From an uncultured Acidimicrobiia bacterium (GTDB lineage: Bacteria > Actinomycetota > Acidimicrobiia > Spongiisociales > JAENVV01): DNA of 64,000 nt. Under the pieces are notes generated by a model. The model worked only from the letters and a program-made list of their open reading frames with translations. It had not been told where the DNA came from and did not search any database. How positions within the stretch are numbered: position 1 is the first letter of the stretch; each line of letters opens with the position of its first letter. Positions 43,671 to 63,096 of this stretch are shown in pieces. The stretch spans positions 880,589 to 944,588 of the forward strand of contig CAVOQP010000006.1 of the NCBI GenBank assembly GCA_963698385.1, given 5' to 3'. Made by a program: the position numbers and the translations under genes.

Positions 43671-45698
43671 TCAGGGGGTCAGATTCCAGACGCTGTCGTC
43701 GTTGCTGGCGGACTCGTAGGGATTCGACGTCAGGGCGGTGCCGCCACCGCCGTCGATGTCGGGCAGGGTGAGCGCATTCAGCGCGGACTCGAACTGCGAC
43801 CGGGTCTTGGAATCACCCGATACGGCAAACGTGTCGCCGTTGTCGTACGACAGGCGGTACCAGGCAGTTCCTCCGCTCAGCTTCTTCACGTCGATGGTGT
43901 TGGCTCCGGTGTCAACTGCGATGATGTCGTAGTCGGCAGAGCCTCCGATCGAAGGCGCCGCCTCCACCGTGTACACCGTCAGGTTGACCACATCGCCGGC
44001 CGCGACATCGATCGAGGCGTCGTTGCCAACGTCGACCTCGGCGTCCACCGAGTCCTCACCAGGATTGGCCGCGCTGAAGCTGAAGCTGACAACACCGGAA
44101 CTGTCGGTGGTCCCGGTGGTTCCACTGGCGGCGTTGGCACCGGTGACGACCCAATTGACCACGGCGCCGCTGACGGGGGTGCCGAACTTGTCCGTGACGG
44201 TCACCGTCACAGAGTGGTTGCCACCGACGAGGCGGGACCTGGTGGACGCCGACAGAACCGCCGCATCGTCGCGAGGCAGGTCGTCATCCCAGGTGACGGT
44301 GGACGTGTCGTCGAGCTCGGCTGCGCCGTCGTCGACCCCGTCGAGATCCTTGTCCCAGAACACCGTCACATTGTCGGTCACGGCGTCATCGCCGCCTGAC
44401 GGATCCGCTGGACCGGTGTAGGTGTAGGTGGCGATGCCGGCAGAGTTGGTGAGAACTGCGGCCGTCTTCACGGTGGTCGCTCCCCGCACCACCCTGATCT
44501 GGATCGTCTGGTTGGCCAGGGGCACCGTCGCCCCGCCACCGTCGACGAACTTGATCGACAGGCCAGCCGGGGTCCCGAACTTGGCGACCACGTCGGCCGA
44601 GACGATGGCCGCCGGTGGCGGCCCCCAGACCACGTCGAGACTCGCCTTGGTGCGAACGACATCGTCGTCGAAGTTCTCCCCGGACTCACCGATCCAGGCA
44701 AAGACCTTGTCCGTCTCTTGCGTCGTGTTGTGGGTCAGGTTGACCGTGACCACGCCAGATGAGTTGGTCTTGGGATCGTTGTTGTCGATCCTGCAGTCGG
44801 TGCCGGTGCCAGGGTCGCCGTTGTTGAGTTTGGCGTCGGGGTCCACCACGCAGGTGCCGTCGGCTTTGAGCGTCCCCACGAACACGTCCACTGAGATTCC
44901 GGATGCGGCGGTTCCATTGGCGTTGCGAACCGTGACAGTCAGCACGACCGTATCGGTAGTCGAGGCAACACTGGTGCTCGCCACCATCGTGACCGTGTAT
45001 GGCTTGGCCTTGGCCGCATCGAGTTCACGAGCCAGGAAGAGAGCCATCTGGGAGCGAACCACGTCGTTGGCCGGGCTGTACTGGTTCGCACCGGTGCCCT
45101 GGGCGATCCCGAGTTGCGCGAGTTGGTTGATTGCCGTCTGGAGGTTTGCCGGGTAGGTGCCGATATCGGTGAAGCCCTGCGAGTTCCCACTGGGCAGGCC
45201 GAAGCCGGCCCTGGCATGGAGGCGGGTCAGGAACAGCGCCATCTGCAACCGACTGACGGTGGTCGCGGGCGAGTACTGGGTCGCCGTCGTGCCCTTGGTG
45301 ATGCCCAGCTGTGCCAGTTGGTTGATCGCCTTCTGCGCCTCGGCCGACAGACCGCCGAGATCGGTGAAACCCTGACTGACCCCGTCGGGCAGGACGATGC
45401 CGATGTCTTCGGCGGTCCTGATCAGGAACAGCGCCATCTGCACGCGCGTGACCGACTGGCTCGGGCTGAACTTGGTGGCAGAGGTCCCCTGGGCGATCCC
45501 ATAGAAACGGATGCAGTCGATGGCATCGACCGCATCTCTACTCAACCCGCCGAGGTCGTTGAAACCCGAGGCGGGGATGCTGGTTGGACACGCCTCGGAT
45601 GTGAGGGCGTGAGCCGCCGGGGCGGCGATGAGTGTCATCAACATGCTGAACGCGGCGACGGCAACGAGCCGTCGCGAGAACCACGAACGAGCCAACAT
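43671..45698 (-). CDS. surface-layer homology (SLH) domain protein with three N-terminal SLH repeats and C-terminal Ig-like/adhesin-like region
   Basis: signal peptide; three about 55-aa repeats F[NT]D[LI]G...AI[ND]QLAQLGI[TA][KQ]GT...[QY][YF]SP...V[ST]R.QMALFL.R. Confidence 0.8.
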   Translation of the reverse strand: MLARSWFSRRLVAVAAFSMLMTLIAAPAAHALTSEACPTSIPASGFNDLGGLSRDAVDAIDCIRFYGIAQGTSATKFSPSQSVTRVQMALFLIRTAEDIGIVLPDGVSQGFTDLGGLSAEAQKAINQLAQLGITKGTTATQYSPATTVSRLQMALFLTRLHARAGFGLPSGNSQGFTDIGTYPANLQTAINQLAQLGIAQGTGANQYSPANDVVRSQMALFLARELDAAKAKPYTVTMVASTSVASTTDTVVLTVTVRNANGTAASGISVDVFVGTLKADGTCVVDPDAKLNNGDPGTGTDCRIDNNDPKTNSSGVVTVNLTHNTTQETDKVFAWIGESGENFDDDVVRTKASLDVVWGPPPAAIVSADVVAKFGTPAGLSIKFVDGGGATVPLANQTIQIRVVRGATTVKTAAVLTNSAGIATYTYTGPADPSGGDDAVTDNVTVFWDKDLDGVDDGAAELDDTSTVTWDDDLPRDDAAVLSASTRSRLVGGNHSVTVTVTDKFGTPVSGAVVNWVVTGANAASGTTGTTDSSGVVSFSFSAANPGEDSVDAEVDVGNDASIDVAAGDVVNLTVYTVEAAPSIGGSADYDIIAVDTGANTIDVKKLSGGTAWYRLSYDNGDTFAVSGDSKTRSQFESALNALTLPDIDGGGGTALTSNPYESASNDDSVWNLTP

Positions 45699-48477: not shown

Positions 48478-48617
48478 GGCTCGCCTCTCTGGTCTCTGGC
48501 AGTCACCGCCAAGCCTATCCATGCGGCATACACGCATCTTTCCGGCAACGCTGAGCGCTCCCGGCAGGAGTGGCGCGCCGAGTTCGGAAAGGGACCGAAC
48601 CGTTAGGCTCCTCGCTC

Positions 48618-49250
48618 ATGCTCGTCTCCGTGGAGGATCTCGTCGTCGTTCGCGGTGACACACCGGTCCTGCAGGGCGTCTCCCTCTCGCTCGGGCCGGG
48701 CGAATCGCTTGGGATCGCCGGCCACAACGGCTCGGGCAAGACCACACTCCTGAGGGTCCTGGCCACCCTGCTGCGACCGACATCCGGCATCGTGCAGATC
48801 CTCGGGAAGGACGCGACAGACAAGGATGCGCGACTGGTTCGACCACGGATCGGGATGGTCGGCCATGTCCCGGCCCTGTCGCCGCACCTCACACTCGGCG
48901 AGAACCTCCGTTTCGCGGCGACCCTCGGTGGGATCGATACCGCGTTCGTGCCGGAAGCGCTGGCCATGGTGGGTCTCGGACGAGCAGGTGATCGACTCGC
49001 CGGGAAGGCATCCCAGGGGATGGGTCGGCGGGCGGACCTCGCCCGCATCGTCCTCACCCAGCCGACGCTTCTCCTCCTCGACGAGCCATTCGCCGGCCTC
49101 GACGCCCACGCCACCGGGATCATCGGGGCCATCATCGAGCGCACCGTCGCCCGCGGCGGCGCCGTGGTGGTGGTGTCGCACGAGCCCGCCCGGGCCGCGA
49201 CGGTGGTCGATCGCACCATCACGCTGGAGAACGGGAGGTTGGTCCCATGA
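48618..49250 (+). CDS. ccmA: heme exporter ATP-binding protein CcmA
   Basis: Walker A GHNGSGKTT, Walker B LLLLDEPFAGLD; first gene of ccm cluster. Confidence 0.8.
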   Translation: MLVSVEDLVVVRGDTPVLQGVSLSLGPGESLGIAGHNGSGKTTLLRVLATLLRPTSGIVQILGKDATDKDARLVRPRIGMVGHVPALSPHLTLGENLRFAATLGGIDTAFVPEALAMVGLGRAGDRLAGKASQGMGRRADLARIVLTQPTLLLLDEPFAGLDAHATGIIGAIIERTVARGGAVVVVSHEPARAATVVDRTITLENGRLVP

Positions 49251-49915
49251 CGTTCTGGCGTCAGGCCTTCGCCATCACCCGTCGCGACCTCCTCGCCGAA
49301 GGACGAGCCGGGGACGTGCTGTGGATCGTCATCCCCTACGGGGCGCTCGCCGTCTTCCTCTCCCCCATCGCCCTCAATTCGTCGAGGGCGATCCTCAGCG
49401 AGATCGGGCTCGGGCTCAACTGGCTCATCGTCCTGCTCTTTGGCATGTTCGTGACCTTCCGCCGCTCCGCCCAGGCAACCGCGGCTGAGTCGGACATGCT
49501 GGCGCTCATGCTCGGCGACCCGGCGTCGTCCTTCCTCGGACGAACCGTGTCCTCGACGGCCCTCCTCCTTGCATTCCAACTCGTCATGACGCCCCTGACC
49601 ATGGGGCTCTTCTCCCCCGCACCACCGCGCTCATGGGCTGCGTACGCGGGTGTGGCGGCACTTGCCGCACTTGGACTCGGCATGATCGGGACCATCGCCG
49701 GGTCGCTCGTGGCGGGGACCGGGGCGGGGACCGCCCTCGCCCCGCTGCTCACCGGGGCGCTCAGCTTCCCGCTGCTCGTGGGCGCGGCCATCTCCACCGA
49801 CCGGTTGACCGGGGGCGACAGTATCCTCGCCCCCGTCGCACTCCTTGCCCTCGTGGACGTCGCAGTCCTCACGGCCGGGGTGTTGACCTCCCGCCCGCTC
49901 GAGGAGACAGCGTGA
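49247..49915 (+). CDS. ccmB: heme exporter permease CcmB
   Basis: ATGA overlap with ccmA; six TM helices; position in ccm locus. Confidence 0.75.
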   Translation: MTFWRQAFAITRRDLLAEGRAGDVLWIVIPYGALAVFLSPIALNSSRAILSEIGLGLNWLIVLLFGMFVTFRRSAQATAAESDMLALMLGDPASSFLGRTVSSTALLLAFQLVMTPLTMGLFSPAPPRSWAAYAGVAALAALGLGMIGTIAGSLVAGTGAGTALAPLLTGALSFPLLVGAAISTDRLTGGDSILAPVALLALVDVAVLTAGVLTSRPLEETA

Positions 49916-50625
49916 AGCTTGCGCAACGAATCCTGACGGTCCTCGCCCTTGCGGCGATCATCACGGGTCTCGTCCTTGCCATGAACACCGAGCCCGACGC
50001 AGTGCAGGGCGAGTTCGCCCGCGTGTTCCACGTGCACGTCCCATCCGCCTGGCTGGCATTCCTGGCCTTCGGGGTGACACTGCTGGGCTCGATCGGGTGG
50101 CTGATCTGGCGGAAACCCGCGGCCGACCACCTGGCCGCCGCCTCGGCTGAGATCGGGGTCTTCTTCACCGGCCTCGCGCTCGTCACCGGCATGATCTGGG
50201 GATACCCCGTGTGGGGCGTCGCCTGGGACTGGGGAGACGCTCGGCTGGTCTCCACCGCGGTGATGTTCTTCGTCTATGTCGGTTACCTCGCCCTCCGGAG
50301 AGCGATCCCCGACCCGGTCGTACGCGCCACCCGCTCGGCGGTGCTCGGATCCCTCGCCTTCCTGCTGGTGCCTGCCGTCTACTTCTCGGTCGAGATCTTC
50401 CGGACGCTGCATCAGGGCATGACGATCACCCCCCAGGGCGCGTCGATGAGTTCTGAGATGCTGGTCGCCTTCCTCGTCAACCTCATGGCGTTCACGATCC
50501 TCTACCTGGCGTTCCTCGTCAGCCGCACCCGCCTGGCATTCGCCCAGGCGGAGGCCGCGGCGAGTCGACCGGTGTCGGGGCTGGGCGACGTCGAACCTCC
50601 CGACCTGGGGGCCATCCGTGGCTGA
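49912..50625 (+). CDS. ccmC: heme exporter protein CcmC
   Basis: GTG start overlapping ccmB stop; W-rich motif VWGVAWDWGDARL (WxWD-type heme-handling motif); conserved His residues. Confidence 0.8.
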   Translation: MKLAQRILTVLALAAIITGLVLAMNTEPDAVQGEFARVFHVHVPSAWLAFLAFGVTLLGSIGWLIWRKPAADHLAAASAEIGVFFTGLALVTGMIWGYPVWGVAWDWGDARLVSTAVMFFVYVGYLALRRAIPDPVVRATRSAVLGSLAFLLVPAVYFSVEIFRTLHQGMTITPQGASMSSEMLVAFLVNLMAFTILYLAFLVSRTRLAFAQAEAAASRPVSGLGDVEPPDLGAIRG

Positions 50626-50719
50626 GGGTTGGGTCACGTTTGCCTACGTCGTCGTATACGGCTTCATCGTCGGGTATGGCGTCTCGTTGGCGGTTCGCTG
50701 GCGGAGGCTCCGCAAGTGA
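50618..50719 (+). CDS. ccmD: heme exporter protein CcmD-like small membrane protein (33 aa; not in ORF track)
   Basis: VAEGWVTFAYVVVYGFIVGYGVSLAVRWRRLRK: single TM helix followed by basic tail, GTG start overlapping ccmC end, GTGA overlap with ccmE start. Confidence 0.6.
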   Translation: MAEGWVTFAYVVVYGFIVGYGVSLAVRWRRLRK

Positions 50720-51144
50720 CACAGCCGGACCGACCCGGGCCTGCCGCGGGCCGGCGCCTCTTCGTCGTCGGGGCCGTGCTGGCCATCGTCGCGCTCGCCG
50801 CCGTGCTCCTCAACCAACTCTTGGCAGAGAACTCCGTCCTCTACCTCGAGCCGCGGGAGGCCCTCGACCAACGAGATGAACTCCCCGATGGTGAGGCATT
50901 CCGACTCGGCGGGTGGATCGTCCCCGGCAGCCTGTCAGATGGTGGCGGAACACTCACCTTCGAGGTGACCGACTTCGCCGAGGTGATCCCGGTTCGCACC
51001 GGGGCCACTCCACCCCAACTGTTCGGAGAGGACATCCCGGTCCTGCTCGACGGCGCCTTCGAGGGCGACACTTTCGTGGCCACCGGGATCATCCTTCGTC
51101 ACGAGGAGAACTACCAGCCGCCGGAGGACGAGGCAGACGAATGA
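50716..51144 (+). CDS. ccmE: cytochrome c-type biogenesis heme chaperone CcmE
   Basis: N-terminal TM then LRHEENYQPP-like C-terminus; FRLGGWIVPGSL...GTLTFEVTD OB-fold region; position in locus. Confidence 0.75.
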   Translation: MTQPDRPGPAAGRRLFVVGAVLAIVALAAVLLNQLLAENSVLYLEPREALDQRDELPDGEAFRLGGWIVPGSLSDGGGTLTFEVTDFAEVIPVRTGATPPQLFGEDIPVLLDGAFEGDTFVATGIILRHEENYQPPEDEADE

Positions 51145-53135
51145 TCGCCCTCATCGGCCTCCTCGGGGTGCTGGCGGGGGTAGTCGGTGGGCTCTGGCTG
51201 GCCACTGCGGCGTTCTCCTCGGCCCGGGAAGCAACCCCGGACCTCCGCCGTCCGGTCGGGTTCCTCCTCTCGGGAGCGATCATCTCGATGCTCGCGCTCG
51301 TCGCCGGCCTCCTCACCGATGACTTCTCCATCGCCTACGTGGCCAACCACAGCGCCGCCTCGACGCCGTTTGTCTTCAAGGTGGCCTCGGCGTGGGGGGC
51401 CCTTGAAGGGTCGATCGTCCTGTGGGGCCTCGTGCTCGCGACAGCGGTGTGGTGGTCGCTGCGATCCCGACGCGACGCCCTCGACCGACTCGACGTCCTC
51501 GCGCTGGGAGTCATGGGGGTCGTAGCGGTCTTCTTCTTCGGGCTCATGGCGACCGTCGCCAATCCATTCGAGGTCTGCACGATCCCGGCGAGCATCGGAT
51601 GTGCGGACTCGTCGTGGTGGCCGTTCGTCGCGGGTAGCGCACCCGCCCAGGGCCGCGGCCCCAATCCGCTCCTTCAGAACCACATCCTCATGGCCATCCA
51701 TCCCCCGATGCTGTACCTCGGGTACGTCGGACTCACCGCCCCATTCAGCTACGCCATTGCCGCCCTGCTCGTCGGCACCCCCGGCGTGGCGTGGGTGACC
51801 CGCACCCGTCGCCTCACGCTGCTGGCCTGGGCCTTCCTGACGATCGGCATCCTCCTCGGTGCATGGTGGTCGTACGAGGTGCTCGGCTGGGGCGGCTACT
51901 GGGGATGGGACCCCGTGGAGAACGCATCGCTGCTTCCCTGGATCACCGCGACGGCCTTCCTCCACTCCTCGGCCGTCCAGGTCCGGCGGGGAGCGCTCCA
52001 GGCCTGGAACTTCGTCCTCGTGATCGCGTCGTTCGCCCTCACCATCCTCGGTACGTTCCTCACGCGATCCGGGGTGATCACCTCGGTTCACTCCTTCACC
52101 CAATCGGCCATCAGTCCACTCCTGCTCGGGTTTTTCGTGGTGGTGATCGTCGGCGGCCTCGGCCTCTTCGCCCTTCGCTCGCACCTCGTGGCCACACCCG
52201 GCACGGTCGACGAGCCGATCAGCCGAGCAGGAGGCCTCCTCGTCAACAACATCCTGCTCTCGGCATGGGCGGTCACGGTGCTGATCGGAACCGTGTACCC
52301 GATCCTCGTGGAAGCCTTTGCCACCCGGACCGTGGGCGTTGGACGAGGCTTCTTCGACGCCACCACGATCCCCCTCGCCTTCACGTTGCTCCTTGTGATG
52401 GGATTCGGCGAGGTCGCCCCATGGAAGAAGGCCGCGTGGTCGACGGTCCGGGGCCGGATGGCGCTCCCAGCCCAGGTCGCGCTCGGGGTGGGAGCCGGGG
52501 CGGTCCTCCTCGGTGTTCGCTCCCGAGGAGCCCTGACGGCCATCACCTTGGCCGTCTTCGTGGCTGTCCCACCCATCAAGGAACTCGTACGCCTCACACG
52601 GACCCGGGCCGGGAAGGGGACGCCGGCGCTCGCCGCCCTGCTCGGCATCGTGCGCCGCGACCGGGGGTATTGGGGCGGCATGCTCTCCCATCTGGGGATT
52701 GCCGTCATCGTGATCGGGATTGCCGGCTCCGGGGGTTTGGCCACGACCCACCGGGAGGTCGAACTGCCCCGAAACGAGACGGTCGTCGTCGGCGACTACT
52801 CGCTCTCCTTCACCGGCGGATTCACGACGACCGAGCCACAACGAACCGTCACCGGGGCAACCATCGAACTACGCCGGGACGGCGACCTGGTCACGCTCCT
52901 GCGGCCGACGATCAACGACTACCGGGTGCAGGCCGTCCCAACACCCGCCGTCGACACCTCGATCACCCGGGATGTCTATGTCTCTCTGCGCTCCATCGAT
53001 GGCAGTCGAGCCATCGTCGACATGCACGTCTTCCCACTCCAATGGATGGTCTGGGTTGGCGGCTTCCTGGTGGCGTCCGGCGGTTTCTGGGCGCTGTCGA
53101 GCCGCACCCGGGAGCGTGAGGTCGCACGGGCATGA
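51141..53135 (+). CDS. ccmF: cytochrome c-type biogenesis protein CcmF (heme lyase)
   Basis: 664 aa polytopic; W-rich motif LGWGGYWGWDPVENASLLPW; conserved His. Confidence 0.85.
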   Translation: MIALIGLLGVLAGVVGGLWLATAAFSSAREATPDLRRPVGFLLSGAIISMLALVAGLLTDDFSIAYVANHSAASTPFVFKVASAWGALEGSIVLWGLVLATAVWWSLRSRRDALDRLDVLALGVMGVVAVFFFGLMATVANPFEVCTIPASIGCADSSWWPFVAGSAPAQGRGPNPLLQNHILMAIHPPMLYLGYVGLTAPFSYAIAALLVGTPGVAWVTRTRRLTLLAWAFLTIGILLGAWWSYEVLGWGGYWGWDPVENASLLPWITATAFLHSSAVQVRRGALQAWNFVLVIASFALTILGTFLTRSGVITSVHSFTQSAISPLLLGFFVVVIVGGLGLFALRSHLVATPGTVDEPISRAGGLLVNNILLSAWAVTVLIGTVYPILVEAFATRTVGVGRGFFDATTIPLAFTLLLVMGFGEVAPWKKAAWSTVRGRMALPAQVALGVGAGAVLLGVRSRGALTAITLAVFVAVPPIKELVRLTRTRAGKGTPALAALLGIVRRDRGYWGGMLSHLGIAVIVIGIAGSGGLATTHREVELPRNETVVVGDYSLSFTGGFTTTEPQRTVTGATIELRRDGDLVTLLRPTINDYRVQAVPTPAVDTSITRDVYVSLRSIDGSRAIVDMHVFPLQWMVWVGGFLVASGGFWALSSRTREREVARA

Positions 53136-54109
53136 CCGCCCGTCGCCTCGCCAGTTGGACATTCACCGTCGTCGCCGCCGGGATCCTGCTGTGGGGGATG
53201 ATCGCCGTCCAGGGTGGTGACATCGACCCGCTCGCCATCGGGGACAAGATCGCCTGCCCGAAGTGCGAGGGCGAGTCGATCGCCGCGTCCCAGACGCAGA
53301 CCGCCCGGGCGATGATGGTCATCGTCGAGGAGCGCATCGCCGAGGGACTGTCCGAGCGTGAGATCCTCGACTGGTTCGCAGCCCGGTACGGGCCTGACAT
53401 CGTCCTCGAGCCCCCGCTCGACCTCGGAGGGTTGGCGCTGTGGGCGATCCCCATGGTCGTGGTGGCGGGCGGGGCGATTGTCGCCGTCCGCTCCTCGAAG
53501 GGACGGCAAGAGGAACCAGACTCCGCACCCTCCGGGCGTCGTAGCCTCGTGGTGCTTGGCGTGGCCGCGCTGGTCCTGACCGGCCTCGCGTTCGGTATCG
53601 GGCAGTTCGTTCAACCCCGAGCCGCCGGCTCGGCGGTGAGCGGGAACCTCGAGGTGGGCACCAGCACCGACCTCGACGGTGTGAGCAATGCCGAGATGGA
53701 GGAATTGCTCCAGCAGTTCGCCGGGATCCCGGAGGCCAACCGAATGCGCCTCGCGCTTGCGCGGAGGTACTTCGAGGAAACGAACTACTCGAAAGCCGTC
53801 GAGCACTTCCAACTCGTCCTCGGCAACGACCCAACGCCATTGGAGGCGAGTGAGGCACTCGGCCGGATCGGCTGGATCCTCTTCGCCAACGGCGAGCTCG
53901 CGGCGGCGGAATCGGCCTATGTCCAAGCGCTCGACGCCCTGCCCGGGAACGGAGAGGCGAAGTGGTTCTACGCCATCCTCCTGGTCGATTCCGACCGCGG
54001 CCCGGAGGCCGTGCCCCTCCTGGAGGAGCTCCTGGCGGACGAGACCGTTCCGCCGGAGATCATGACGGAGATCGAAGTCCTTCTCGACCAGGCCAAGGTG
54101 GGCACGTGA
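53132..54109 (+). CDS. ccmH: cytochrome c-type biogenesis protein CcmH (CxxC) with C-terminal TPR (CcmI-like) domain
   Basis: CPKCEGES redox motif after N-terminal TM; second TM; TPR-like C-terminus. Confidence 0.75.
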   Translation: MTARRLASWTFTVVAAGILLWGMIAVQGGDIDPLAIGDKIACPKCEGESIAASQTQTARAMMVIVEERIAEGLSEREILDWFAARYGPDIVLEPPLDLGGLALWAIPMVVVAGGAIVAVRSSKGRQEEPDSAPSGRRSLVVLGVAALVLTGLAFGIGQFVQPRAAGSAVSGNLEVGTSTDLDGVSNAEMEELLQQFAGIPEANRMRLALARRYFEETNYSKAVEHFQLVLGNDPTPLEASEALGRIGWILFANGELAAAESAYVQALDALPGNGEAKWFYAILLVDSDRGPEAVPLLEELLADETVPPEIMTEIEVLLDQAKVGT

Positions 54110-54675
54110 AGCGTTGGCCCACATGGGTGGCGATCGGCGTGATCGTCGTATTCGCCGGGTTCATGGCTGGACGCCTTGGCCTCGGCGAGTCCATCCCCGA
54201 GTCGCCGCTCATCGGCTCCCCCGTCACCGACATGGAACTCCCACTCCTCGAGGAGGAAGGCAGCATCCGACTCACCGACTACGCGGGGAAGATCGTCGTC
54301 GCCAACTTCTGGGCCTCGTGGTGCACCCCGTGTCGTGAGGAGCATCCGGCGTTCGTGGCAGCAGCCGACCTCTACGCCGGTGAAGGCGTCCAGTTCGTGG
54401 CCATCAACCATGAGGACCCGGGCGACGCCGGCAGCCGCTTCCTGGACGCATACGGCCGAAGCATCCACCAGGTGGTCGTGAGGGACGAGGGCAGCCGGGC
54501 GGGGATCGAGTTCGGTGTATTCGGCCTCCCGGAGACCTTCTTCATCGATGGCAAGGGAATCATCGTCGGTCGGGTCGCGGGGGCGATCGACCTGCCGATT
54601 CTCATCGACTTCATCACCCAGATCCAGGCGGGCGACGCCCCCGGGGAGCTGGACGGCATCGTTTACCGGCCGTAG
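54106..54675 (+). CDS. ccmG: thiol:disulfide oxidoreductase CcmG/DsbE (TlpA family)
   Basis: WASWCTPCREEHP active site; GTGA overlap with ccmH. Confidence 0.8.
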   Translation: MKRWPTWVAIGVIVVFAGFMAGRLGLGESIPESPLIGSPVTDMELPLLEEEGSIRLTDYAGKIVVANFWASWCTPCREEHPAFVAAADLYAGEGVQFVAINHEDPGDAGSRFLDAYGRSIHQVVVRDEGSRAGIEFGVFGLPETFFIDGKGIIVGRVAGAIDLPILIDFITQIQAGDAPGELDGIVYRP

Positions 54676-55864: not shown

Positions 55865-56572
55865 TCACGCCAACCGGTGCTCCTGCAGGAACGGGAGGTC
55901 TGCGACGATCTCCCCGATATCGCCGTCCCGGACGACGCGGCCACGGTCCAGCACGATCGCCCGAGTACACAGCGCGTGGGCAAGGTCGAGGTGATGGGTG
56001 ACGAGGAGGAGTGCCTCCGGGAGGTCTGCCAGGAGGTGTGTGAGCTCACGTCGACCGGCGGGGTCGAGGCCTGATGAGGGTTCGTCCATGATGAGGAGCC
56101 GGGGCCGCATCGCCAGGACGCCGGCGATCGCCACCCTCCGTCGCTCACCTGCTGAGAGGTGGTGGGGAGCTCGTCCCGCGAGGTGGGCAGCCCCGACCCT
56201 GGCCAGGTTCTCTCGAACCACTTCGACCAGCTCCTCCCCTGTCACCCCGTAGTTGGCGGGTCCGAAGGCCACATCGTCTCGCACAGTGGGCATGAAAAGC
56301 TGATCGTTGGGGTCCTGGAAGACCAGCCCGACATGGCGACGAAGCTCGAACGCCGAATCCGCGGTGAGCTTCTCATCGACGATCTCGACGGTGCCGGCGG
56401 TGGGAAGGACAACCCCCATCAACGCCAACACGAGTGTCGTCTTGCCGGCGCCATTCGGTCCGAGGAGCGCCACCCGCTCGCCCTCTTCGATCGAGAACCC
56501 GACGTCCACCAGCGCCACCTCACCGCCCGGGAATGTGTGCCCAACCCGCTCGACTGACACGAGCCTGCTCAC
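55865..56572 (-). CDS. ECF transporter ATP-binding protein (CbiO/NikO/EcfA)
   Basis: Walker A GPNGAGKTT, signature LSAGERRRV, Walker B LLIMDEPSSGLD; GTGA overlap with Q-component. Confidence 0.8.
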   Translation of the reverse strand: MSRLVSVERVGHTFPGGEVALVDVGFSIEEGERVALLGPNGAGKTTLVLALMGVVLPTAGTVEIVDEKLTADSAFELRRHVGLVFQDPNDQLFMPTVRDDVAFGPANYGVTGEELVEVVRENLARVGAAHLAGRAPHHLSAGERRRVAIAGVLAMRPRLLIMDEPSSGLDPAGRRELTHLLADLPEALLLVTHHLDLAHALCTRAIVLDRGRVVRDGDIGEIVADLPFLQEHRLA

Positions 56573-57330
56573 AGCGCCACCGCCACGGCCGCGGCAAGCA
56601 CCGCCACCGACGGAAGGGCCAGACCGGCCCCCCAGTCGCCGAGTGATGCGGTCGCCCCGAACGGCGTCGGCATGACGCCTCGGTAGCCGCGGACCACCAT
56701 TGCAGCATGGATCCGCTCGCCACGTTCGAAGGCCCGGACCAGCATCGTGCCGACGAGCATCGCGAGTACCCGCACCGCACCCAGCCCGGTCGCCCGATAG
56801 CCGCGGACGGCGGCGGCAGTACGCATCCGTCCGAACTCGCCTGCGAGGACATCGAGGTAGCGGATCATGAACCCGGCGATCGCCACCAGGACGGCCGGCA
56901 GCTTGAGGCGGCTGAGCCCGGCAAGGATGTCGGGCACCTCGGTGGTGGCGGCCAGCACGACGGAGGCCCCAGTGCCCAGGGAGGCCCTGGCCAGGATCGA
57001 CCACGCCGACCACAGGCCCTCCCCGCTGAGCGCCACACCGAGGACGGCGACCCGGGGGTCGGGACCGACGAATGGCAGGAACGCGGCGAAGAGCACGAAT
57101 GGGACCTCCACCACCATCCGCCGGACAACGAAGCCCACGGCCAGTTCGGAGCGGGCAATGACGAACGCCAGGACGACCGCGTGAAGCCCAAAGGCCCAGA
57201 CGGCCGCCCTGGGTGTGGCGACAACAGCAGCAAGGAACAGGAGGAGCGCAGCCACTTTGACATGCGGGGCGAGGCCGTGGGCCCGACTGTGGCCGTGGAC
57301 GTAGAGAGCATGGGTGTGGAGACCGCTCAT
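56569..57330 (-). CDS. ECF transporter transmembrane component CbiQ/NikQ
   Basis: polytopic membrane protein between M/N and O components; ATGA overlaps both sides. Confidence 0.65.
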   Translation of the reverse strand: MSGLHTHALYVHGHSRAHGLAPHVKVAALLLFLAAVVATPRAAVWAFGLHAVVLAFVIARSELAVGFVVRRMVVEVPFVLFAAFLPFVGPDPRVAVLGVALSGEGLWSAWSILARASLGTGASVVLAATTEVPDILAGLSRLKLPAVLVAIAGFMIRYLDVLAGEFGRMRTAAAVRGYRATGLGAVRVLAMLVGTMLVRAFERGERIHAAMVVRGYRGVMPTPFGATASLGDWGAGLALPSVAVLAAAVAVAL

Positions 57331-58286
57331 CGGCCGGCCGGCCGACGGAGGAGTCGAGTGAGGCCCCACAAGAGCATCCCGGCGACGACTGCACCAACAA
57401 TGCCGGCCACCCCGACGGCCACGACATTGCTTTCGAGCCCGGGGAGTGCGTACCCCGCGAGTGGGCTATCGGACAATTGATGGTCCAGCGCTGCCTCGTC
57501 GAATCCGAGTTGGATGGCGACCCGCTGCAACCCGTCGGGTGACGACGCCGCGAATGGCGCCACCCCAAGCGCCAGCACCCCCACGAGGACGGCTCCCGCC
57601 ACGACAGCGCCCCGGTTGGTGGTCGACGGCTGGCCGTCCAGGCCACCGACCCCGACCGCGACATCCGGGCGAACCCGCATGAGGGCTCCGACGATCAAGG
57701 CACTGATGAGTCCCTCGCCGACCCCGATGACAAGGTGGACGGAGGTCATGGCCGCCAGTACGGATCCAAGGGGTGCTCCCCCTTGCCCTCCCAACGCGTA
57801 CTCGATGGAGAAGGCGACCGCTGATGCCACCACCGAAGCCAACCCCGCGAGGAACACCGCGACGGTCACGGCCCAGCGGCGGTCCGGGGTGACAGACCGA
57901 ACGAGCCGAAACACCGCCCAGCCGACCAGGACGGTGACGACGGCCATGTTGAGCAGGTTCGACCCCAGGGCCGAGATCCCACCGTCGGCGAACACGAGTG
58001 CCTGCACTCCGACCACGACGGTGAGCACGAGGACACCCAGCCACGGGCCGAGGAGGACTGCAGCGAGCGCCCCTCCCAGGAGGTGCCCCGAGGTGCCGAA
58101 GGCAACGGGGAAGTTGAGCATCTGTAGGACGAAGATCATCGCGGCCGAGATGCCGGCCAGCGGGATCCGCCGGTCAGTGGAGAGTGATCGCCCTGACTGA
58201 CGGAGCGCAGCTCCGATGCCCCCCGCCGCCACGAGACCCGTGCCGATCGAGGTGGTCGCGTTCAGGAATCCATCCGGTATGTGCAC
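57327..58286 (-). CDS. fused Ni/Co ECF transporter substrate-capture components CbiM-CbiN (NikMN-like)
   Basis: N-terminal MHIPDGFL metal-binding hallmark; about 320 aa with additional C-terminal TM pair consistent with fused N component. Confidence 0.8.
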   Translation of the reverse strand: MHIPDGFLNATTSIGTGLVAAGGIGAALRQSGRSLSTDRRIPLAGISAAMIFVLQMLNFPVAFGTSGHLLGGALAAVLLGPWLGVLVLTVVVGVQALVFADGGISALGSNLLNMAVVTVLVGWAVFRLVRSVTPDRRWAVTVAVFLAGLASVVASAVAFSIEYALGGQGGAPLGSVLAAMTSVHLVIGVGEGLISALIVGALMRVRPDVAVGVGGLDGQPSTTNRGAVVAGAVLVGVLALGVAPFAASSPDGLQRVAIQLGFDEAALDHQLSDSPLAGYALPGLESNVVAVGVAGIVGAVVAGMLLWGLTRLLRRPAGR

Positions 58287-58303: not shown

Positions 58304-58320
58304 TTGCAAGGGACTTGCAT
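58304..58320 (-). promoter_or_regulatory. Nur-box-like palindrome TTGCAA-gggac-TTGCAT 18-34 nt upstream of cbiM/nikM start; candidate operator for adjacent Fur-family regulator
   Basis: sequence read directly; resembles Streptomyces Nur consensus tcTTGCAA-N5-TTGCAAga as recalled. Confidence 0.4.
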
Positions 58321-58354: not shown

Positions 58355-58990
58355 CTATCCGTAGCTCGTGAGGGTGTCGAGCTTCTCTCGTACTCCGTCC
58401 TCACCGAGGGCGCCCGACCACTGGTCGACGATCACGCCGTTGAAGATCATCACCGTGACCGGCTGGTACGGGACCCCATAGGCCTCGAAGATGGCTTCCT
58501 CGGCGTCGAGCCCCCATTGGATCGCCCCGGCTCCGAGCAGTTCGTTCGCCTTGGCCAAGGTCTTCTCGAACGAACCCTTCCACGCGACCGCGACGAACGC
58601 GACCTCGTCTTCATAGTCCGCACTCACCTTGTCGACAACGGGCAACTCCCGTTGACAGGTGCCTCACCATTCGGCCCAGAACACCAGGTAGACGGGCCGG
58701 GCCTCCTCCGACAACGTGAACGAGCGACCGTCGCCCAATGCGAGGGTGAAATCGGGCGCAGGTGGACCGGCAGGGGGTGCAACCGTCTCGGCCGGCGGAG
58801 GGTCGGTCTCGGTCGGAGCAGGGCTCTCGAGGTCCGCCGGGGGTGACTCGGCTTGGCCGAGCGTGGACGGCGCCACCACCGCCGTCGAGGAACTGACGCC
58901 GCCCTCGGCGATCGAGTCCTGGGTGCTGGGGGCGGCACAGGCGACCGCCACGAGCAGGAGGGCAACGAGATGTGGGGCCCGGGGGGTCAT
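58355..58990 (-). CDS. TlpA/ResA-like thioredoxin-fold lipoprotein, candidate selenoprotein (in-frame UGA at 58664-58666 replacing first Cys of CxxC: FWAEW-U-GTC)
   Basis: two adjacent ORFs (58664-59044 and 58355-58645) are one continuous thioredoxin fold if TGA is read through; lipobox VAVAC; hairpin caacggg-agttg-cccgttg begins 9 nt 3' of UGA. Confidence 0.6.
58636..58654 (-). ncRNA. candidate bacterial SECIS hairpin (mRNA element) 9 nt downstream of the in-frame UGA
   Basis: perfect 7-bp stem CAACGGG/CCCGUUG with 5-nt loop AGUUG in coding mRNA. Confidence 0.45.
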
Positions 58991-59000
58991 ACCGACCACT

Positions 59001-59021
59001 CTATGGGTCGACACCCCATAG
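59001..59021. promoter_or_regulatory. inverted repeat CTATGGG-N7-CCCATAG in the fur-tlpA(Sec) intergenic region
   Basis: read directly; located 11-31 nt upstream of the tlpA start on the minus strand. Confidence 0.3.
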
Positions 59022-59047
59022 GGGTAGGACCCGAAGGACAACAATCC

Positions 59048-59482
59048 CTAAACGGCCTCGCCGAGCGAGCAGGCGGCGCAGGTACCGACGAGGGCGAAGT
59101 GGAGGGTGTCGGCGGCGAAGCCGTGGCGATCGGCCACCGGGGACAGGGCACTGAGGACCTCGGCTGCTGGGATATCCACGACGACACCACACACGCGGCA
59201 GCTGAGGTGGTGATGCGGCTCCTCGGTGAGATGGACAACCGTCGTCCCTTGGCCAGTGTGCACGTGCTCGACGAGCCCGAGTCCCTGGAGAACCTCGATT
59301 GTCCGGTAGACGGTCGATGCATCGATCCGGCCCCCGGTGAGTGCCTCGGCGCCGGCCTTCAGCTCGACGGCTGAATGGTGGCGGTCCGGTCCGGAGGCGA
59401 GCACTTCGCACAGCGCCGTCCGGGCGGCGGTGATCCGCATCCCCTCTGCCCGAAGGGCGTCGAGGAGGAGGTCTGCGTTCAA
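59048..59482 (-). CDS. Fur family metalloregulator (Nur/Zur/PerR-like)
   Basis: RITAARTALCEVL DNA-binding helix, HHH..C and CxxC metal sites (HLTEEPHHHLSCRVCG, CAAC). Confidence 0.8.
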   Translation of the reverse strand: MNADLLLDALRAEGMRITAARTALCEVLASGPDRHHSAVELKAGAEALTGGRIDASTVYRTIEVLQGLGLVEHVHTGQGTTVVHLTEEPHHHLSCRVCGVVVDIPAAEVLSALSPVADRHGFAADTLHFALVGTCAACSLGEAV

Positions 59483-60498
59483 CCCTTGAGCTCCGCGGAG
59501 CGGACGAGCACCCGGTCGAGCGTCTCGGCGGCGGCCCCGGAATCGATGGTCTCCCTGGCAACCCGCACTCCGTCGACGAACCCCGCGGCCAGGCCGGCCA
59601 CCACGAGGGGGGCCGACGCGTTGATGAGGACGATGTCCCGCCGGGGTCCCCGCTCCCCCTCGAGCACCGACCGGAGGATCCCGGCGTTCGTCTCCGCGTC
59701 GCCACCGAGGACATCCTCGATGGAGCCCCGGTCCACCCCGAAGTCCTCTGGTGTGAACTCGGCCACCGTGATCTCCCCCTCGCGAAGCCGATAGATGAAC
59801 GACGGCGCTGCTATCGAGAGCTCGTCGAGTCCGTCCTCGCCGTAGTAGACGAAGGCGTTGGCAGCCCCGAGGTTGCGGAGGACGTTGATCATTTTCTCGG
59901 CCATGGCGCTGTCGGAGACGCCAATGGCCAGGTTCGTGGCCCCTGCGGGGTTGGTGAGGGGGCCGAGGAAGTTGAAGACGGTCGGGATACCGAGTTCCTT
60001 GCGGACGGGTACGGCATGGCGCATGGACGGGTGGTACGCCGGCGCGAACAGGAAACCGAACCCGGTCTCCTCGATCAACTGTGCGGTCGTCTCCGGGTCG
60101 AGGTCGAGTGGGTATCCGAGCGCTTCGAGCACGTCGGCGGCACCTGACTTCGAGGAGGCCGAGCGGTTCCCGTGCTTTGCGACCCGCCCCCCGGCTGCTG
60201 CGACGACGAAGGCACTGGTCGTGGAGATGTTGAACGTGCCGGATCGATCGCCACCGGTCCCGACCACGTCAACGAGGGGGCCGGGGACCGGGCACTTCAC
60301 CGAGGCTTCGCGCATTGCCTCGACGAGACCGGTCAGTTCGTCAACCGTCTCGCCTTTCATCCGCAAGGCCACGATGAGGGCAGCTGTCTGGGAAGGGGTT
60401 GCTTCGCCGGCCATGACGACCTGCATCGCCTTGCGTGCCTCGCTCCGTGTGATGTCTGCTCCCGAGGCGAGCTTGCCGAGTGTCTTGGCCCAGTCCAC
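59479..60498 (-). CDS. trpD: anthranilate phosphoribosyltransferase
   Basis: GTGGD motif (VDVVGTGGDRSGTFNIST), KHGNRS, conserved N-terminal ALRMKGET; GTG start with ggag RBS; ATGA overlap with fur. Confidence 0.85.
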   Translation of the reverse strand: MDWAKTLGKLASGADITRSEARKAMQVVMAGEATPSQTAALIVALRMKGETVDELTGLVEAMREASVKCPVPGPLVDVVGTGGDRSGTFNISTTSAFVVAAAGGRVAKHGNRSASSKSGAADVLEALGYPLDLDPETTAQLIEETGFGFLFAPAYHPSMRHAVPVRKELGIPTVFNFLGPLTNPAGATNLAIGVSDSAMAEKMINVLRNLGAANAFVYYGEDGLDELSIAAPSFIYRLREGEITVAEFTPEDFGVDRGSIEDVLGGDAETNAGILRSVLEGERGPRRDIVLINASAPLVVAGLAAGFVDGVRVARETIDSGAAAETLDRVLVRSAELKG

Positions 60499-60638
60499 TG
60501 AGTCTCCAGATCCGTGTTCGAGCCGCGATGGTAGAGCGTCCCAGAAGAGAGCGGCAGGACGAGCAGCCGCTGCCAGCACGCAGTGAACACACCGTCCACC
60601 CTGAATAGACTTGAAGCGACGCCGAGGAGACCACCCAC

Positions 60639-62717: not shown

Positions 62718-63096
<379 letters not shown>

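Follow-up and report, generated by a model that had tools for sequence, protein, structure and literature searches.

We have analysed a 64-kb stretch of DNA from an uncultured Acidimicrobiia bacterium (64,000 nucleotides of contig CAVOQP010000006.1; the whole stretch is hereafter called the window) and conclude that a tlpA-like gene on its minus strand is very probably a genuine selenoprotein gene. The gene was divided by open reading frame (ORF) prediction at an in-frame TGA, and we argue that the two pieces almost certainly make up a single gene, whose product is a membrane-anchored, thioredoxin-like redox protein with selenocysteine (Sec), judging from its sequence and that of its relatives. 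The TGA is conserved among related loci and the frame downstream of it is intact; a hairpin that follows it has frozen synonymous codons, shows covariation and agrees with the constraints on a bacterial selenocysteine insertion sequence (bSECIS). These observations lend support to an original prediction, made from the window alone, which had interpreted the gene as encoding a selenoprotein.

The gene and its reading frame

Direct translation shows that the minus strand from 58990 to 58355 is one 211-codon frame whose sole internal stop is the TGA at 58666..58664. The frame has an ATG at 58990 and a terminal TAG at 58357..58355, and translation through the TGA gives ...PVYLVFWAEW*GTCQRELPVVDKV...GVPYQPVTVMIFNGVIV...SYG*. 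On the basis of translation and Pfam matches, the complete gene (58355..58990, minus strand) would encode a TlpA/ResA-like thiol:disulfide oxidoreductase prelipoprotein, and 82 related loci share its architecture. The TGA (58664..58666, minus strand) is its predicted Sec codon, residue 109, and the first position of a U-G-T-C motif (58666..58655) that aligns with the first cysteine of WCxxC. The Cys-substituted protein matches the Pfam families Redoxin (2e-12; 47.5 bits against a cut-off of 26.6), AhpC-TSA and Thioredoxin, all above their cut-offs.

In the ORF list the gene is cut into 58664..59044 and 58355..58645, both on the minus strand. The original prediction had joined these ORFs through the TGA into one uninterrupted TlpA/ResA-type gene, with which the single frame and the Pfam matches agree. 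It had also placed the TGA at the first cysteine of W-C-x-x-C, giving U-G-T-C, and both the translation and the alignment with Cys homologues described below confirm that placement.

Public annotation divides the gene in the same way. In a search of 5.8 billion predicted proteins, ten public gene calls, among them the window's own (P0001), stop precisely at ...FWAEW, and the gene is divided at the TGA in every public call examined (P0001, P0051, P0052, P0055-P0061; loci L001-L010, L013-L092). The split calls consist of an N-terminal 'hypothetical protein' without a Pfam domain and, in records that have a second call, a C-terminal ORF of 80-99 residues. The exact protein of the window is present on just two contigs.

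Conservation of the TGA and of the downstream frame

The same protein search returned about 50 full-length Cys homologues that carry FWAEW-C-P-[TV]-C, several of them named TlpA-family disulfide reductases, from Acidimicrobiia. When the merged protein is aligned with them, an alignment that the original prediction had suggested, the TGA of the window falls on the first Cys of the CxxC motif in all of these approximately 50 proteins. We also recovered the DNA behind seven fragment proteins that end in FWAEW, which represent ten loci, and found that a TGA follows FWAEW in 10/10. One of the seven, L010, ends at a contig edge right at the TGA; in the other six, which have enough sequence, read-through restores the full thioredoxin domain, with the motifs UGSC, UGVC, USSC, USTC and UPTC.

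A wider sample came from a scan of species-representative genomes (one genome per species, GTDB representatives) with the family alignment, which gave 289 relatives, of which the best 80 loci were analysed. The genome of the window is outside this set, and the nearest locus in it is 73% identical. The Sec codon is TGA in 76 of the 80 best loci and TGT or TGC in four, nearly all of them in Acidimicrobiia metagenome-assembled genomes (MAGs), so that the closest species-level representatives as a rule have the Sec form. Altogether, 90 loci were examined for the Sec codon, with TGA in 86, TGT in two and TGC in two; they provide 82 non-redundant TGA loci and 79 distinct TGA sequences, to be compared with seven Cys forms. 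One MAG, KW1-S11_42, has two Sec-form copies (L054 and L086) on different contigs, which may be paralogues or may come from a bin of mixed strains.

The TGA is followed by 98-106 stop-free codons in every one of the 82 non-redundant TGA loci. The entropies at codon positions 1, 2 and 3 over these loci are 0.82, 0.60 and 1.48 bits downstream of the TGA, as against 0.54, 0.46 and 1.25 bits upstream. Since the frame stays open after the TGA and variation there is dominated by the third codon position, the downstream half of the gene is evidently translated and under purifying selection. Consistent with this, the residues that are invariant in the family alignment include W82, G83, D85, Q99 and P100, and the column of the resolving cysteine is invariant as well, with a Cys in every locus examined. 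The related loci share 56-73% amino-acid identity with the window and therefore are not copies of one contaminating sequence. The original prediction had considered it unlikely that a chance nonsense mutation would land on this codon, and retention of the TGA in 86 of 90 loci with intact downstream frames bears this out.

TGA also serves as an ordinary stop in these genomes. It terminates 41 of the 60 long ORFs of the window and 53 of the 82 genes of the selenoprotein family, which shows that TGA has not been reassigned in this lineage, and we rejected a global UGA reassignment on the count for the window. In the 53 family members UGA is used twice per mRNA, at the Sec position and then as the terminal stop about 100 codons further on; the window copy ends in TAG.

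The hairpin downstream of the TGA

A bSECIS-type hairpin is located at 58636..58654 on the minus strand. It is composed of a 5' stem CAACGGG (58654..58648), a loop AGUUG (58647..58643) and a 3' stem CCCGUUG (58642..58636); it begins exactly 9 nt after the TGA, and its loop begins 16 nt after the UGA. The original prediction had described this hairpin at this distance, and its position and sequence are as stated there. The hairpin that it had called perfect does have a fully paired 7-bp stem in the window; as a conserved element, however, the stem has only 6 bp, the seventh and outermost pair being open in 20 of 79 sequences.

The 19-nt hairpin of the window has a dG of -9.8 kcal/mol. The 42 nt that start at the TGA fold with -16.8 kcal/mol (z = -2.3), and 5 of 200 shuffles fold equally well. 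Taken alone, the window hairpin is only modestly unusual, suggestive rather than decisive, and it is the comparative data that make it significant.

The alignment of the 79 distinct TGA sequences is gap-free for 48 nt from the TGA, and the codons that they use within the hairpin are strongly restricted. Arginine is encoded by CGG and glutamate by GAG in 79/79; leucine is encoded by TTG in 70, TTA in nine and CTN in none, although the window is 67% GC; and proline is encoded by CCC in 78 and by CCT in one. The CCT variant retains a G-U pair in the stem and belongs to one of the two copies in KW1-S11_42. Third-position entropy is 0-0.5 bits in the CGG GAG TTG CCC codons and about 0.8 bits in the stem codons next to them, and it rises to 1.7-1.9 bits directly outside the hairpin. 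We considered whether the hairpin could be a by-product of the conserved RELPVV peptide, and rejected this because the seven Cys forms encode a near-identical peptide, R[R/K]ELP[V/I]V, without a comparable hairpin. These forms use AAG, CGA or CGC, then CTT, CTA, CTC or CTG, and CCG, and the minimum free energy (MFE) of their 19 nt is -0.1 to -6.8 kcal/mol, as compared with a median of -11.4 kcal/mol in the Sec forms.

The stem also shows covariation. The pair formed by alignment columns 14 and 30, in which the second base of a Gln/Arg codon meets the synonymous third position of a Val codon, is G-C in 60 of the 79 sequences, A-U in 14, G-U in two and C-G in one, and is unpaired in two. Both sides are changed in 16 cells, against 3.2 +/- 1.5 in shuffles, and 0 of 500 shuffles reach as high a value. 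Overall, pairing is seen in 95.8% of cells, and in 34-76% of them after the partner has been slid by 1-3 columns. The signal comes mostly from this one pair, the four G-C core pairs each varying in at most one sequence. RNAalifold, run on the 79 sequences, independently predicts the same 6-bp stem and 5-nt loop.

We compared the hairpin with the bSECIS model as drawn in Fig. 2 of a recent review (PMC13188914). The model has an apical loop of 3-9 nt on an upper stem of 4-16 bp, a G in one of the first two loop positions that is usually followed by G or U, a distance of 16-37 nt from the UGA to the loop and a hairpin MFE of -7.5 kcal/mol or lower. The loop of the family is 5 nt long (AGUUG in 70 sequences, AGUUA in nine), and its first four positions, A-G-U-U, are unchanged in 79/79; the consensus stem has 6 bp, that of the window 7 bp. 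The UGA-to-loop spacing is constant at 16 nt (a 9-nt spacer plus a 7-nt stem arm) in the 79 sequences. The window hairpin lies below the energy limit, as do 76 of the 79 Sec forms. In addition, the covariation supports the structure beyond what protein coding alone would require.

The AGUUA loop, in which leucine is encoded by TTA, occurs in L018, L019, L022, L023, L026, L027, L039, L058 and L075. It appears that the fifth loop base is tolerated as a purine, to judge from the alignment, the first four being constant. Among the Cys forms, L093 (5001..5573, protein P0012) has TGT at the Sec position and retains CGGGAGTTGCCA; its codons CGA CGG GAG TTG CCA are the set of the Sec type, with the stem broken. 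The sequence looks like a decaying SECIS left by a recent Sec-to-Cys replacement.

Evidence against a selenoprotein and alternative explanations

Several observations weigh against reading the gene as a selenoprotein gene. The spacing of 16 nt between the UGA and the loop is at the very bottom of the accepted range. Neither ARAGORN nor Rfam found a tRNA-Sec, or indeed any tRNA, in the 64-kb window, and E. coli SelA, SelB and SelD, used as tblastn queries on the window and on 1.25 Mb of related loci, matched nothing beyond one weak GTPase hit. No second selenoprotein gene or SECIS of the same type was seen in the window or in the related loci, and no dedicated NCBIfam selenoprotein model reaches its cut-off.

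Related searches were likewise negative. A de novo scan of the window for in-frame TGAs flanked by coding sequence returned only antisense artefacts, with a filter so insensitive that it missed the target gene too. None of the occurrences of the loop pattern GGAGTT[GA]CC elsewhere in the loci is linked to a TGA; the recurring match is the RNA of RNase P. When Rfam was run over the hairpin in E-value mode, nothing came back but a miRNA match without meaning (E = 1).

The alternative that survives best is that the UGA is recoded to a residue other than Sec, by near-cognate insertion of Trp, Cys or Arg or in some other way, in a lineage that lacks the Sec machinery. We consider this unlikely. In its favour, the machinery genes were not found in the window or in the 1.25 Mb of related loci, and it is established that downstream hairpins can promote stop-codon read-through generally. 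However, the UGA stands at the catalytic Cys of the CxxC motif, where Trp or Arg would kill the active site, and to our knowledge Sec is the only functional replacement of that residue. The hairpin fits the SelB-binding bSECIS model in loop size, in the G-U of the loop and in spacing. The family has also switched between Sec and Cys, and together with the decayed SECIS of L093 this is the classical pattern of Sec/Cys interchange. Moreover, the Sec machinery has been reported in the same class: in Actinomarinales, another order of Acidimicrobiia, selA, selB, selC and selD are present in 84/84 complete genomes (bioRxiv 10.64898/2026.04.03.716425). By analogy, this gives indirect support to a selenoprotein.

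It could also be supposed that the locus makes two products, a 108-residue lipoprotein stub and a 96-residue fragment re-initiated at the TTG at 58645, with the hairpin coupling termination to reinitiation. Gene callers annotate it so in every public record examined, and the TTG start is only 18 nt after the TGA. Yet neither half would be a foldable thioredoxin domain, for the cut runs through the active-site motif, where helix alpha-1 begins. The C-terminal piece would be left without an export signal, and the residues between the TGA and the TTG (G-T-C-Q-R-E, the resolving Cys included) are conserved, which would be needless if they were not translated. We regard two separate products as very improbable.

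There is hardly any room for a pseudogene or a sequencing or assembly error, in which a Cys codon became TGA, the gene died and the hairpin is a coincidence: a single base change does convert TGC or TGT to TGA, and the assembly is of the metagenome type with the exact protein on two contigs only, but the same TGA in 86 of 90 independent loci that differ in species, study and sequencing platform, a downstream half that is translated and under selection without a second stop or frameshift in 82/82 loci, and a hairpin conserved beyond the needs of the protein sequence speak against it.

The protein and its proposed mechanism

The N-terminus of the predicted selenoprotein, MTPRAPHLVALLLVAVAC, contains a lipobox A-V-A-C by sequence prediction. 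The signal peptide (MTPRAPHLVALLLVAV-A-C; 58937..58990, minus strand), read from the sequence, ends in Cys18 (58939..58937), which is predicted to be lipidated. That the gene carries a lipoprotein signal had been noted in the original prediction, and besides the lipobox of the window there are 77 of 86 related loci that fit the strict lipobox pattern. Among the nine others, a lipobox can be made out by eye in six; of the three that are left, one is masked by N, one is cut by a contig end, and L053 has none in the part of its N-terminus that was inspected. According to the translation, the lipid anchor is connected to the catalytic domain by a low-complexity linker rich in Pro, Ser, Thr, Ala and Glu (residues 19-77; 58760..58936, minus strand). 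The linker has 59 residues in the window and 15-81 in relatives, with a median of 52.

The catalytic domain (residues 78-211; 58358..58759, minus strand) has a thioredoxin fold of the TlpA/ResA/DsbE/DsbF type, as judged from PDB matches and a proxy model. Its 134 residues start at APDFTL and include PVYLVFWAEW-[TGA]-GTCQRELPVVD. End to end, the domain matches the sequences of DsbF (3ios), MPT53/DsbE (1lu4), ResA (1st9) and the pneumococcal Etrx1 and Etrx2. The structural evidence is by proxy and comes from an AlphaFold model, built with a 51-sequence alignment, of the Cys orthologue P0005, which is 60% identical. The model has a predicted local distance difference test (pLDDT) score of 96.7 and a predicted template modelling (pTM) score of 0.91. 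Foldseek places DsbF (3ios) as its best match at a template modelling (TM) score of 0.87 and ResA at 0.89, followed by CcmG, StoA, SdbA and Etrx. The W-U-G-T-C motif corresponds to residues 108-112, and in the model the motif C33..C36 directly precedes helix 34-50. An invariant Q-P (in YQPVT) stands at the expected cis-Pro site, just before model strand 102-106, where it would adopt the cis conformation. In its fold, its active-site motif and its predicted export, the protein has the features of the TlpA/ResA/DsbE-like group (cd02966; Pfam Redoxin/AhpC-TSA).

How the gene could be expressed and how its product could work are suggested by the canonical bacterial pathway and by the family, from which we infer the actual insertion of Sec, the electron donor and the substrates. 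At UGA-109, the hairpin 9 nt downstream, with its AGUUG loop, would recruit SelB-GTP-Sec-tRNA(Sec), and Sec would be inserted in place of termination. The 211-residue prelipoprotein would then be exported and lipidated at Cys18, and the flexible linker of about 59 residues would tether the product to the outer face of the cytoplasmic membrane, where it would display a TlpA/ResA/DsbF-type thioredoxin domain with the active site U-G-T-C. As in related enzymes, the selenolate of Sec109 would be the nucleophile that attacks substrate disulfides or sulfenates, and Cys112 would resolve the resulting selenenylsulfide. Re-reduction would presumably be carried out by a CcdA/DsbD-type membrane electron shuttle; no DsbD/CcdA domain was found among the 19 window ORFs scanned between 39.7 and 64 kb.

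Genomic context

The selenoprotein gene lies in a series of genes on the same strand in the order trpD, Fur-family gene, selenoprotein gene, cbiM with PDGLE, cbiQ and ABC ATPase. The trpD gene is at 59479..60540 (minus strand). Immediately upstream of the selenoprotein gene is a Fur-family regulator that is probably Nur-like (59048..59482, minus strand; Pfam FUR, 2e-20). Immediately downstream is an energy-coupling factor (ECF)-type Ni/Co uptake transporter, cbiM(+PDGLE)-cbiQ-ABC ATPase (55865..58286, minus strand; Pfam CbiM 4e-59, PDGLE and ABC_tran), with CbiM+PDGLE at 57327..58286, CbiQ at 56569..57369 and the ABC ATPase at 55865..~56620. CbiQ was assigned because tblastn matched it to the CbiQ genes that are annotated by Pfam in L001 and L006. 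The Pfam assignments of these neighbours agree with the original prediction, which had placed the gene between a Fur-family regulator and a Ni/Co transporter. Of 85 related loci, 44 have a Fur-family gene upstream of the Sec gene, and the order fur-tlpA(Sec)-cbiMQO recurs in about 40-45 of the 85, in different species.

Between the selenoprotein stop codon and cbiM is an inverted repeat, ATGCAA-GTCCC-TTGCAA (58304..58320, minus strand), which resembles a Nur box when compared with the published consensus (PMC3919588). It is 18 nt upstream of the GTG start of cbiM and is the sole match to ATGCAA-N5-TTGCAA in the window. The strict core TGCAA-N5-TTGCA, with one C/T and one G/A alternative allowed, occupies the corresponding place in 26 related loci; others have looser variants, for example TTGCGA-N5-TTCGCAA. 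A Nur-box-like operator in front of cbiM suggests that the adjacent Fur-family gene is probably a homologue of the nickel-responsive Nur and that cbiMQO is probably regulated by nickel.

We have considered whether the Sec lipoprotein could be a dedicated extracytoplasmic partner of this transporter, taken as a Nur-regulated nickel/cobalt ECF transporter of the NikM(N)QO type. It might provide a selenol-thiol site for metal capture, or act as a chaperone; or it might be a redox accessory that keeps the metal, or the N-terminal metal-binding site of the transporter, competent. In favour of such a role, about 40 of the 85 loci repeat the arrangement fur(nur)-tlpA(Sec)-[Nur box]-cbiMQO. Against it, the Nur box is on the downstream side of the Sec gene; an adjoining transporter is lacking in about half of the Sec loci and in each of the seven Cys loci; and the most stable neighbours are an AIG2-like gene and the ccm cluster. 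The Cys orthologues share this wider neighbourhood (AIG2-like gene ... ccmG-ccmH-ccmF) without the transporter. Given the position of the operator, the loci without a transporter and the context of the Cys orthologues, we treat the nickel link as a possibility, and a rather doubtful one, not as a conclusion. If it were true, this would be the first selenoprotein tied to nickel acquisition.

On the opposite strand is a System I cytochrome c maturation cluster, ccmABC-F-H (48570..54675, plus strand), with a CcmA-like ABC ATPase, CcmB, CcmC, CcmF, CcmH-TPR and CcmG. The CcmG is of the Cys type, with NFWASWCTPC (…NFWASWCTPCREEHP…), and its gene directly follows ccmH within 53962..54675 (plus strand). 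A ccm cluster with a CcmG arranged in this way is also near the Sec or Cys tlpA in related loci, where the two are long-standing neighbours. We rejected the identification of the Sec protein with CcmG/ResA proper because the window has this separate Cys-type CcmG, 4 kb away. The best reading, based on gene content, is that the Sec lipoprotein would be a second extracytoplasmic reductase, distinct from that CcmG.

Two other features of the window may be mentioned. A class A bacterial RNase P RNA (62728..63092, plus strand; 277.6 bits) is the only Rfam match in the window. It is also a few kb from tlpA in L072, and a shared 60-nt element suggests the same for nine other loci. A 675-residue protein with S-layer homology and Big_1 domains (43671..45698, minus strand) is probably located at the cell surface and unrelated to the selenoprotein.

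Significance

The present analysis adds a predicted selenoprotein gene with comparative validation in Acidimicrobiia, a class for which the only substantive literature treatment that we identified is a 2026 Actinomarina preprint on one order. Its mis-annotation is systematic and touches at least 76 of the species-representative genomes that were scanned; the signature TGA-N9-NNNCGGGAGTTRCCCG, which is invariant, offers a way to correct this. The gene could further serve as a convenient marker that a MAG should encode the Sec machinery. The family, with its decaying-SECIS Cys form, is a natural Sec/Cys series in which Sec-to-Cys replacement can be studied. If the protein is made as proposed, the envelope redox systems of these actinobacteria, which are abundant in soil, sediment and marine habitats, would also include an exported reductase that depends on selenium.

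Comparison with known systems

Thioredoxin-fold variants in which Sec replaces Cys in a UxxC motif are the commonest class of predicted bacterial selenoproteins. In their general features, the gene and its product resemble these proteins as they are presented in the parts of the literature that we draw on here: an AhpC-TSA/Redoxin-type fold, Sec in the place of the first CxxC Cys and a bSECIS in the coding region just downstream. Cys homologues are common for the known families too, and their identification followed the same comparative logic. In the portions of the literature considered, UxxC TlpA-like selenoproteins are catalogued since 2005, and TlpA-, Prx- and Trx-like UxxC proteins are long known (PMC1088965, PMC2398784, PMC13188914). 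The 'Prx-like' and 'Trx-like' families came out of the GOS (Global Ocean Sampling) data in 2008 (PMC2398784), and the 2026 review lists cd02966 (TlpA-like) UxxC and UGC families (PMC13188914). Those same portions do not describe the fixed AGUUR loop, the long-linker lipoprotein architecture or the Fur/Nur-cbiMQO position that characterise the Acidimicrobiia clade (FWAEW-U-x-x-C-[RQ]-RELPV).

Among Cys enzymes, DsbF (Rv1677, 3ios) and DsbE/MPT53 (1lu4) of M. tuberculosis are likewise actinobacterial and exported, with a TlpA/ResA-type fold. DsbF is the best structural match (TM 0.87 and 29% identity for the model of the Cys orthologue) and also a full-length sequence match. These two proteins differ from the present one in being Cys-Cys enzymes without a UGA or a SECIS, at about 30% identity and in another genomic context. 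ResA of B. subtilis, TlpA of Bradyrhizobium and CcmG (DsbE) are, like the Sec protein as predicted, membrane-tethered extracytoplasmic reductases with W-C-x-x-C, and have TM scores of 0.83-0.89 to the model. In these proteins the N-terminal Cys makes the nucleophilic attack, and CcdA/DsbD recycles them. However, they are dedicated to the maturation of cytochrome c or of oxidase, whereas the Sec protein is not the CcmG of the window, and they are held by a transmembrane helix where the Sec protein is predicted to have a lipid anchor. Etrx1 and Etrx2 of S. pneumoniae (4hqs, 2yp6, 4hqz) are closer in this respect, as TlpA-like reductases that are anchored as lipoproteins outside a monoderm membrane, but they are Cys enzymes encoded with CcdA and MsrAB, partners that were not seen adjoining the Sec gene.

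Two NCBIfam models already cover Sec-containing ResA-like proteins, NF041054 ('ResA-like WAxxUGC motif-containing protein') and NF041057 ('Rcas_1661 family thioredoxin-like (seleno)lipoprotein'). The WAxxU of the former resembles the WAEW-U of the window protein, but its motif is UGC, in contrast to UxxC. We rejected membership in either family, since the protein scores 26.9 bits with the former, whose cut-off is 300, and 18.8 bits with the latter, whose cut-off is 190. The gene belongs to a known kind of selenoprotein, and no new mechanism is needed to explain it.

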